A stretch of 64,000 nt of DNA from Escherichia coli (GTDB lineage: Bacteria; Pseudomonadota; Gammaproteobacteria; Enterobacterales; Enterobacteriaceae): the NCBI RefSeq assembly GCF_045037415.1, contig NZ_CP173438.1; one strand, written 5' to 3'. How positions within the stretch are numbered: the first letter of the stretch is position 1; each line of letters starts with the position of its first letter. Position numbers and translations under genes: made by a program. The notes under the pieces are model-generated. The model did not search any database. It was given only the letters and a program-made list of their open reading frames with translations, and was not told the DNA's origin. This document shows, in pieces, positions 2 through 60,173 of this stretch.

Positions 2-193
2 CTGGATTTAGTAAACGATGCAGACGAGTTAGAAGAGCTGGTCGAAGATATTGCCGCTCGTTGTGGGCGCGATCTACGCGGAATAGAAGATAATCCGTTT
101 CTTCCCATCACCACGGTAGGTTCTCTTGTAAGTGTATTAAACGCACAACCGATGACCCAAGAGCGACGTAGCCTGTTGTTTACTCGGTCATAA
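2..193 (+). CDS. hemY: 3' end of a CDS entering the window (frame 2, stop TAA 191-193); position upstream of glmZ/aslA fits the hemY C-terminus
   Basis: Open frame from window edge to TAA at 191-193; assignment by synteny with glmZ and aslA, not by sequence recall of the protein. Confidence 0.5.
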   Translation: MDLVNDADELEELVEDIAARCGRDLRGIEDNPFLPITTVGSLVSVLNAQPMTQERRSLLFTRS

Positions 194-398
194 AAAAACG
201 CCTGCTCTTATTACGGAGCAGGCGTTAAAACAGGTCTGTATGACAACAAGTGGGTGCTTCACTCAACGTTGTGTCCATGGTGTCTGATGAGGCAGAAGCG
301 ACATCTGTCAGTGGACGATAAGCACCGTAAACGGCTCTGCGTCATTCCGGAGTTTATGAGGCACTAAGGCGAACATAAGAGATGGAATGAGCATCTAC
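192..398 (-). ncRNA. glmZ: GlmZ small RNA (207 nt), regulator of glmS
   Basis: Reverse complement begins GTAGATGCTCATTCCATCTC and ends in the hairpin AGCAGGCG plus U-run (192-198); matches remembered GlmZ sequence. Confidence 0.85.
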
Positions 399-822
399 TC
401 GTTTATTATGCCACAGAGAACCGGGAAATAACATCCCTTAACACTTGTTATGAGATAATTCTGTAATCCTCTTTGCTTCCTGAGTAATAACTTCCTGAGT
501 GAATATTTCTCCTGCGCACAATTCTACACATATATATAATGAATAATAAAAGTCATTCAATTAATAACATATATATTAATTGCAGATAAAACTAAAAACA
601 GCATCAATAATCAACGCGATATAACATCACCGCCTTACATATCACCTGCGCCAGAGGTAGGATTGAAAACGCTCTCCTGATTTTCCAATTCATTTTCTGG
701 ATAAATAAATAATTTATTTTTATCACCATTATTTATGCAATCATCCTGTCAGGGAGAGGGATCTCAATTATCAATGCTTAATTACGTCATCATTTTGACG
801 ACATGAAACCGGAGCATTTTGC

Positions 823-20670: not shown

Positions 20671-21000
20671 TTACGCCAGGTTAGCGTCGAGGAACTCTTT
20701 CAACTGACCTTTAGACAGTGCGCCCACTTTGGTTGCCGCCACTTCACCGTTTTTGAACAGCAGCAGAGTCGGGATACCACGGATGCCATATTTCGGCGCA
20801 GTGCCAGGGTTTTGATCGATGTTCAGTTTTGCAACGGTCAGTTTGCCCTGATATTCGTCAGCGATTTCATCCAGAATCGGGGCGATCATTTTGCACGGAC
20901 CGCACCACTCTGCCCAGAAATCGACGAGGATCGCCCCGTCCGCTTTGAGTACATCCGTGTCAAAACTGTCGTCAGTCAGGTGAATAATTTTATCGCTCAT
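20671..21000 (-). CDS. trxA: Thioredoxin 1 (109 aa, WCGPC active site)
   Basis: ORF track 20671..21105; start trimmed to [13 protein letters not shown]. Confidence 0.95.
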
Positions 21001-21130
21001 ATATAACTCCACAGGAATAAGCCTGGCGTGTTGGTTTCGTTGTTGGTGTAACATTAACCAACTAAAGGTTGACTTTATTTCACCGGATACGCTTTCGTAA
21101 AGCAATAGTAAGCTGATATTCTACCACACT

Positions 21131-39067: not shown

Positions 39068-39187
39068 ATGCCTGGCAGTTCCCTACTCTCGCATGGGGAG
39101 ACCCCACACTACCATCGGCGCTACGGCGTTTCACTTCTGAGTTCGGCATGGGGTCAGGTGGGACCACCGCGCTAAGGCCGCCAGGCA
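39068..39187 (-). rRNA. rrfC: 5S ribosomal RNA (120 nt)
   Basis: Reverse complement TGCCTGGCGGCCTTAGCGCGGTGGTCCCACCTGACCCCATGCCGAACTCAG...CTGCCAGGCAT. Confidence 0.95.
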
Positions 39188-39287
39188 AATTCTGTTTTAT
39201 CAACACGTCCCGTTATGACCTGTTGATTCAATCTGTTATCAAGCTTACTTATCGATGTCTCTTCCGCCAAAACATCTTCGGCGTTGT

Positions 39288-42191
<2,904 letters not shown>

Positions 42192-42384
42192 TCACAACCC
42201 GAAGATGTTTCTTGCGATTCATCATCGTGTCGCGAAAATTTGAGAGACTCACGAACAACTCTCGTTGTTCAGTGTTTCAATTTTCAGCTTGATCCAGATT
42301 TTTAAAGAGCAAATATCTCAAACATCACCCGAAGATGAGTTTTGAGATATTAAGGCAGGTGACTTTCACTCACAAACCAGCAAG

Positions 42385-42460
42385 TGGCGTCCCCTAGGGG
42401 ATTCGAACCCCTGTTACCGCCGTGAAAGGGCGGTGTCCTGGGCCTCTAGACGAAGGGGAC
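42385..42460 (-). tRNA. gltU: tRNA-Glu in the 16S-23S spacer
   Basis: Reverse complement GTCCCCTTCGTCTAGAGGCCCAGGACACCGCCCTTTCACGGCGG...CGCCA. Confidence 0.9.
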
Positions 42461-42545
42461 GTATCAGTCTGCTTCGCAAGACGCCTTGCTTTTCACTTTC
42501 TATCAGACAATCTGTGTGAGCACTGCAAAGTACGCTTCTTTAAGG

Positions 42546-44087
<1,542 letters not shown>

Positions 44088-59895: not shown

Positions 59896-60173
59896 TGCGA
59901 TCTACTGTGGATAACTCTGTCAGGAAGCTTGGATCAAACGGTAGTTATCCAAAGAACAACGATTGTTCAGTTTTTGAGTTGTGTATAACCCCTCATTCTG
60001 ATCCCAGCTTATACGGTCCAGGATCACCGATCATTCACAGTTAATGATCCTTTCCAGGTTGTTGATCTTAAAAGCCGGATCCTTGTTATCCACAGGGCAG
60101 TGCGATCCTAATAAGAGATCACAATAGAACAGATCTCTAAATAAATAGATCTTCTTTTTAATACCCAGGATCC
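59896..60173. other. oriC: Chromosomal replication origin oriC
   Basis: Reverse complement matches the classic E. coli oriC: DnaA boxes R4 (59906-59914), R3-like (59945-59953), R2 (59980-59988), R1 (60086-60094), three 13-mers, 14 GATC sites, BamHI site at 60168-60173. Confidence 0.95.
60108..60151. repeat. oriC DNA-unwinding element: three AT-rich 13-mers (R 60108-60120, M 60123-60135, L 60139-60151)
   Basis: ctaataagagatc, aatagaacagatc, aaataaatagatc are the reverse complements of GATCTCTTATTAG, GATCTGTTCTATT, GATCTATTTATTT. Confidence 0.9.

Follow-up and report, generated by a model that had tools for sequence, protein, structure and literature searches.

An intact glmZ gene on an Escherichia coli chromosome and an accessory open reading frame that takes the place of hemY at its terminator

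The locus

The DNA analyzed here, hereafter the window, is a 64,000-nucleotide stretch of an Escherichia coli chromosome that is colinear with K-12 coordinates 3,986,641 down to 3,921,895. Its first 900 positions have a match in 5,425 of 5,426 complete E. coli genomes and are 100% identical to many of them. At its left edge the small RNA gene glmZ lies on the minus strand and the 3′ end of a protein-coding sequence converges on it from the plus strand (Table 1). The order aslB-aslA-glmZ is that of K-12, with aslA 424 nt upstream of glmZ. On the other side hemY is the next conserved gene, and an accessory open reading frame (ORF) lies between the two.

Table 1. Features at the left edge of the window, with window coordinates.
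Feature	Position	Strand	Basis
Last 63 codons and stop of the 196-aa hypothetical protein WP_001260226.1	2..193	+	annotation of identical strains
glmZ (sraJ/ryiA), 207-nt primary transcript	192..398 (+1 = 398, 3′ end = 192)	-	RF00083, K-12 identity
Stem-loop I (SLI, nt 1-65), one of two RapZ-binding stem-loops	334..398	-	cmscan structure line; identical to K-12
Stem-loop II (SLII, nt 73-146), central, RapZ/RNase E-recognized	253..326	-	cmscan structure line; carries A104C
Single-stranded linker: bipartite 15-nt glmS-pairing site and RapZ/RNase E processing site (~nt 151)	230..249	-	RNAduplex
Stem-loop III (SLIII, nt 173-202), Rho-independent terminator, and U7 tail	192..226	-	terminator scan and cmscan
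Extended -10 TGgCATAAT (TG at -15/-14)	405..413	-	read from sequence; identical to K-12
-35 ATGTTA, 3/6 matches to TTGACA, 18-nt spacer	429..434	-	read from sequence

Several observations concern the remainder of the window. Apart from the accessory segment, the only stretch without a K-12 match is 26101-26154, where 54 nt stand in place of ∼830 bp (3,959,829-3,960,661, the yifN pseudogene). Identity to K-12 is ∼94.7% in a glmZ-aslA block (189-2529) and an ilvY-ilvC block (26498-29009), compared with ∼97.9% for the rest, and these blocks may be recombination tracts. From colinearity (K-12 3,925,744-3,925,975), oriC is expected at window ∼59,900-60,150, between mnmG and mioC. Rfam hits above the gathering score were also obtained for Rev39_5p_UTR (35347-35636, minus strand; by mapping, at the ilvL/ilvX leader), the TrxA 5′UTR thermometer (20971-21070, minus strand) and StyR-44 (42199-42307, minus strand), the last just upstream of the 23S rRNA gene of the rrnC operon (39070-44087).

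GlmZ RNA and its terminator

A preliminary description had assigned the 207 nt of the minus strand to GlmZ and had proposed a covariance model search and an alignment to K-12 glmZ as the check. Both were performed, and both bore the assignment out decisively. Using cmscan with Rfam 15, positions 398 to 192 matched RF00083 (GlmZ_SraJ) from end to end of the model (positions 1-214 of 214) with a score of 217.5 bits and an E value of 4.6e-57; the gathering score of this family is 60 bits. A match of this strength over the full model excludes chance as its origin, and the hit was recovered again when the whole window was scanned at gathering thresholds. The NC line of cmscan marked zero non-canonical pairs, and all three stem-loops of the family architecture were found. 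The minimum free energy fold of the 207-nt RNA has an energy of -60.8 kcal/mol, with z = -3.9 relative to dinucleotide shuffles.

Aligned to E. coli K-12 glmZ, 206 of 207 nucleotides are identical. The sole difference in the RNA, A104C (window 295), falls at the tip of stem-loop II, in its 12-nt apical loop; other Escherichia loci have A or T at nucleotide 104. [quoted passage not shown] Both nucleotides are unchanged in the window and are distinct from position 104.

In the canonical terminator hairpin (window 226 to 197), 11 bp, 7 of them GC, form the stem and 8 nt the loop, and T7 occupies 198 to 192. Its U-run had been described as abutting the stop codon of the plus strand coding sequence. 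The contact is real, although it goes slightly further than abutting: the last two U residues of GlmZ are the complement of the AA in the TAA stop at 191-193, giving an overlap of 2 nt. Note that the RefSeq annotation of K-12 glmZ is 172 nt long (3,986,432-3,986,603; L002:6433-6604) and ends before the terminator, while its length is 207 nt according to both the covariance model and published work.

The glmZ promoter

The minus strand upstream of +1 (window 398) reads ATGTTATTTCCCGGTTCTCTGTGGCATAATAAACGA up to the initiating G. It carries the features of the Escherichia-type sigma-70 promoter: ATGTTA, an 18-nt spacer, TGgCATAAT and a +1 at the G of GTAGATGC. From -45 to -1 it is identical to the K-12 promoter save for one spacer base, G in place of A at -23 (window 421). 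The CATAAT noted earlier as a -10 element lies at -12 to -7 (window 405-410), exactly as in K-12, and is the true -10 of glmZ.

In K-12, 5′ deletions and point mutations showed that glmZ has one promoter, which depends on sigma-70 and is constitutive (Göpel et al., PMC3045617). Its -10 is essential by mutation, its -35 has three consensus bases and sequences upstream of -40 are dispensable (PMC3045617). A generic sigma-70 scan missed the promoter in the window because the -35 matches the consensus at only three of six positions; it was called instead through identity with the mutationally defined K-12 promoter. One strain that is otherwise identical, E. coli AVS0068, has an IS1 in the glmZ-aslA intergenic region (L131:740-1437), ∼100 nt upstream of the glmZ start and beyond the region to -40 that is needed for promoter activity.

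Pairing with glmS

The published glmS-pairing site of GlmZ consists of 15 nt between SLII and SLIII, its target is glmS -41 to -19, and the K-12 site was validated by compensatory mutation (PMC4152352). When the window RNA was paired with the K-12 glmS leader using RNAduplex, exactly these 15 nt were used, namely nt 150-157 (UUGUUGUC) and nt 163-169 (AGACCUG); they pair with glmS -39 to -22 at -25.1 kcal/mol. The energy is only modestly better than that of shuffled sequences, since 31 of 500 mononucleotide shuffles of the 40-nt region were equally good. The pairing claim therefore rests mainly on the identity of the site with the mutationally validated K-12 site.

We infer the roles of RapZ, RNase E, Hfq, GlmY and GlmS at this locus from the literature on the K-12 allele (PMC4152352, PMC9841335). 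By analogy, nt 150-157 and 163-169 of the linker would pair with the glmS leader with the assistance of Hfq, and this would open the hairpin that masks the glmS Shine-Dalgarno sequence and permit more GlcN6P synthase to be made. When GlcN6P is plentiful, the adaptor RapZ would bind SLI and SLII and offer the linker to RNase E. Cleavage falls between SLII and SLIII (PMC9841335); it would remove the pairing site and leave an inactive species of ∼151 nt. Under GlcN6P shortage, the decoy small RNA GlmY would titrate RapZ, and full-length GlmZ would build up. The genes glmS, glmY and rapZ lie beyond the 64-kb window (the window ends at K-12 ∼3,921,895 and glmS is at 3.912-3.914 Mb).

The convergent gene

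The plus strand coding sequence had been taken for the 3′ end of hemY, and this is incorrect. It is the tail of WP_001260226.1, a protein of 196 amino acids, as annotated in strains that are 100% identical to the window over positions 1-900. One of these, SK1144, has the gene order hemY, WP_001260226.1, the glmZ position and aslA, and the full accessory gene lies at L001:11603-12193. The 63 residues encoded in the window have no similarity to HemY of an identical strain (BLASTP E = 45). The hemY label appears to have been transferred from the K-12 map, where hemY is 47 nt from glmZ; in the identical strains it ends 638 nt from glmZ, past the left edge of the window.

K-12 homology begins at window 189 (break at 188/189), 3 nt past the U-run, and a segment of ∼640 bp here stands in place of the 44-nt hemY-glmZ spacer of K-12. 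The conserved glmZ flank contributes part of the last two codons of the ORF, TCA TAA, and the stop codon is built from conserved sequence beside the GlmZ terminator. The segment has a GC content of 45.5%, compared with 55% for hemY. Of 5,426 complete E. coli genomes, 693 (∼13%) carry it, always as a single copy. With the SK1144 segment as the query (it does not differ from the window where they overlap), two alleles ∼12% apart were distinguished: 588 genomes are ≥99% identical to it, O25b:H4-ST131 among them, and 105 are at ∼88%. The segment is horizontally acquired and strain-variable.

Between the ORF stop and glmZ, no plus strand intrinsic terminator was found. That the ORF might share the GlmZ terminator bidirectionally is not supported, as the hairpin on the plus strand is followed by AAAACAGG, without a U-tract. 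Searches of the literature for the ORF accession, or for glmZ, hemY and ST131, returned nothing relevant.

The protein is predicted to be a membrane protein with two N-terminal transmembrane helices. Searches of Pfam, NCBIfam, PADLOC and PHROGs gave no family for WP_001260226.1 and only sub-threshold noise of transmembrane type. Full-length relatives with 35-59% identity were found outside Escherichia, including one from Pseudomonas solani. Their alignment has 20 invariant columns; common features are the invariant MRTPSR at the N-terminus, a pair of hydrophobic helices and conservation of the C-terminal domain. In the AlphaFold2 model (mean pLDDT 83), the N-terminal part shows two long helices, and the C-terminal domain is helical as well. 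For the latter, the top 16 Foldseek matches in the PDB were all acyl carrier proteins (ACPs) or ACP subunits, over ∼77-111 columns and with TM-scores of 0.41-0.70 normalized to the target (most 0.5-0.7), none of them significant (best E = 0.23). Likeness to ACPs extends to this non-significant fold similarity and an acidic motif resembling that of helix II. Unlike ACPs, the ORF family carries the domain as a fusion with two N-terminal transmembrane helices, and it lacks a conserved serine: across the C-terminal domain of the family alignment, no Ser that could be the phosphopantetheine serine of a DSL motif is invariant or nearly so. A Pfam PP-binding match was also absent.

The genomic contexts of three distant homologs have nothing consistent in common. 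The P. solani homolog, 36% identical (L125:5001-5582), is two genes from glmS-deoR-glmU. This proximity is probably a coincidence, as the contexts of the other two (L126, L128) differ.

Comparison with other glmZ loci

A scan of species-representative genomes with a GlmZ pattern gave 120 loci. In all 107 where hemY was in range, it is convergent with glmZ. The spacer between them has a median of 83 nt and is 47-48 nt in Escherichia without the ORF; here it is 638 nt. Unrelated inserts of 0.5-1.5 kb occupy the gap in several other genera (L020, L028, L032, L040, L042, L050, L062 and others); they encode small membrane proteins in Proteus, Providencia and Photorhabdus, and a transporter-like ORF of ∼400 aa in Enterobacter and Lelliottia. 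Because several genera hold unrelated inserts there, the hemY-glmZ gap appears to be a site of repeated insertion in Enterobacterales. Using tblastn and phmmer, no relatives of the accessory ORF were found in the hemY-glmZ spacers of other species.

Relative to K-12 GlmZ (b4456; SraJ/RyiA), the window has the same stem-loops, pairing site, terminator, sigma-70 elements and aslA-side neighbors, and differs in having C rather than A at nucleotide 104, G rather than A at -23 and the 196-aa ORF rather than hemY as downstream neighbor. GlmZ of Salmonella, Yersinia and most Enterobacterales shares the RNA family, the 5′ end (GTAGATGCTCAT...) and a convergent hemY. The Salmonella/Yersinia-type gene differs in its promoter, which is a GlrR-dependent sigma-54 promoter (TGGCAC-N5-GTGCA), alone or overlapping a sigma-70 -10 (PMC3045617). 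Escherichia, the window included, has lost the sigma-54 glmZ promoter, as published (PMC3045617).

Discussion

We consider it close to certain (probability about 0.97) that positions 192-398 of the minus strand are the functional glmZ of the E. coli chromosome, encoding a 207-nt, presumably Hfq-dependent small RNA driven by sigma-70; nothing in the sequence speaks against this. That the locus might instead be GlmY, or an undifferentiated member of the GlmY/GlmZ clan, deserves mention because the two RNAs share one Rfam clan (CL00011), have homologous SLI and SLII and, according to the literature, both bind RapZ; lower-scoring overlapping clan hits did exist. GlmZ was nevertheless the best clan scorer over the full length, and the locus adjoins aslA, as glmZ does, GlmY being encoded at another chromosomal place. 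The reading is already refuted by the glmS-pairing site, which GlmY does not have (PMC4152352), and by the near-complete identity to K-12 glmZ, and we give it practically no weight. A different question is whether glmZ keeps a partly functional sigma-54/GlrR promoter and is regulated as in Salmonella or Yersinia. A sigma-54 glmZ promoter, with or without an overlapping -10, was described in other species by Göpel et al. (PMC3045617). When 118 other species loci were compared with the alignment anchored on +1, 102 had TGGCA[CT]-N4-6-TGC at the same position (consensus tTGGCAcg....gTGCAaTAat). The string TGGCA, previously described as a residual motif, does exist in the window at -15 to -11 (window 409-413), and the G at -23 gives GG at -24/-23, where K-12 has A at -23. 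The full pattern is nonetheless absent from the window promoter within -32 to -1. At the position of the -24 box (-27 to -22, TGGCAC elsewhere) the window and all Escherichia loci have CCCGGT, which matches at none of six positions, and the -12 box, GTGCA elsewhere, is GTGGC in all of them. TGGCA sits at the place of the -12 box, and no GlrR site (TGTC-N10-GACA, ≤1 mismatch) was found in 398-822, the whole glmZ-aslA intergenic region; together with the anchored comparison, this rules out a leftover -24 box. In K-12, moreover, GlrR does not bind the near-identical promoter, and deleting rpoN or glrR leaves it unaffected (PMC3045617). Retained sigma-54 control is accordingly extremely improbable, and TGGCA is best read as contributing the TG of the extended -10 (TGgCATAAT), or at most as a mutated -12 box.

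On the convergent side, the competing view is that the accessory ORF is a chance open frame in inserted junk DNA rather than a real gene. It would fit with the failure of the protein to match any Pfam, NCBIfam, PADLOC or PHROG family and with the sequence ahead of the frame, where no sigma-70 consensus promoter was found and where a strong intrinsic terminator, brought by the segment, directly follows hemY (ATATCGCCTCGTTCAGGGGCGATAT then T7) and ends 17 nt before the start codon. It would also fit with the two alleles being less alike in amino acids (84% identity) than in nucleotides (87%). Against this view, all 196 codons remain open in both alleles, and the changes between them concentrate at third positions (19/17/38 by codon position). 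Full-length homologs with invariant columns exist outside Escherichia, and the AlphaFold model is confident. We regard a chance frame as unlikely.

The glmZ gene found here is thus a known small RNA gene, intact and ordinary, and there is nothing new in finding it on an E. coli chromosome. The only new item is the uncharacterized accessory gene that overlaps the GlmZ terminator with its stop codon. Because its transcript meets no plus strand terminator before glmZ, transcription could read through antisense to GlmZ or collide with it. We consider it very unlikely, though conceivable, that the ORF transcript acts as a long antisense RNA to GlmZ, or through transcription collision, as a strain-specific input to the GlmY/GlmZ/RapZ control of cell-envelope precursor synthesis. 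In a weaker variant, the ORF product could be linked to amino-sugar metabolism, by analogy with the one distant homolog near glmS in P. solani. Any such interference with GlmZ by the accessory transcript, which is conjecture only, would add a small, strain-specific variation to a well-studied circuit. The overlap of TGGCA with the extended -10 is an example of how Escherichia has lost sigma-54 control, as published, and the corrected neighbor of glmZ is an uncharacterized gene, predicted to encode a membrane protein, that is carried by approximately one in eight complete E. coli genomes, pandemic ST131 included.
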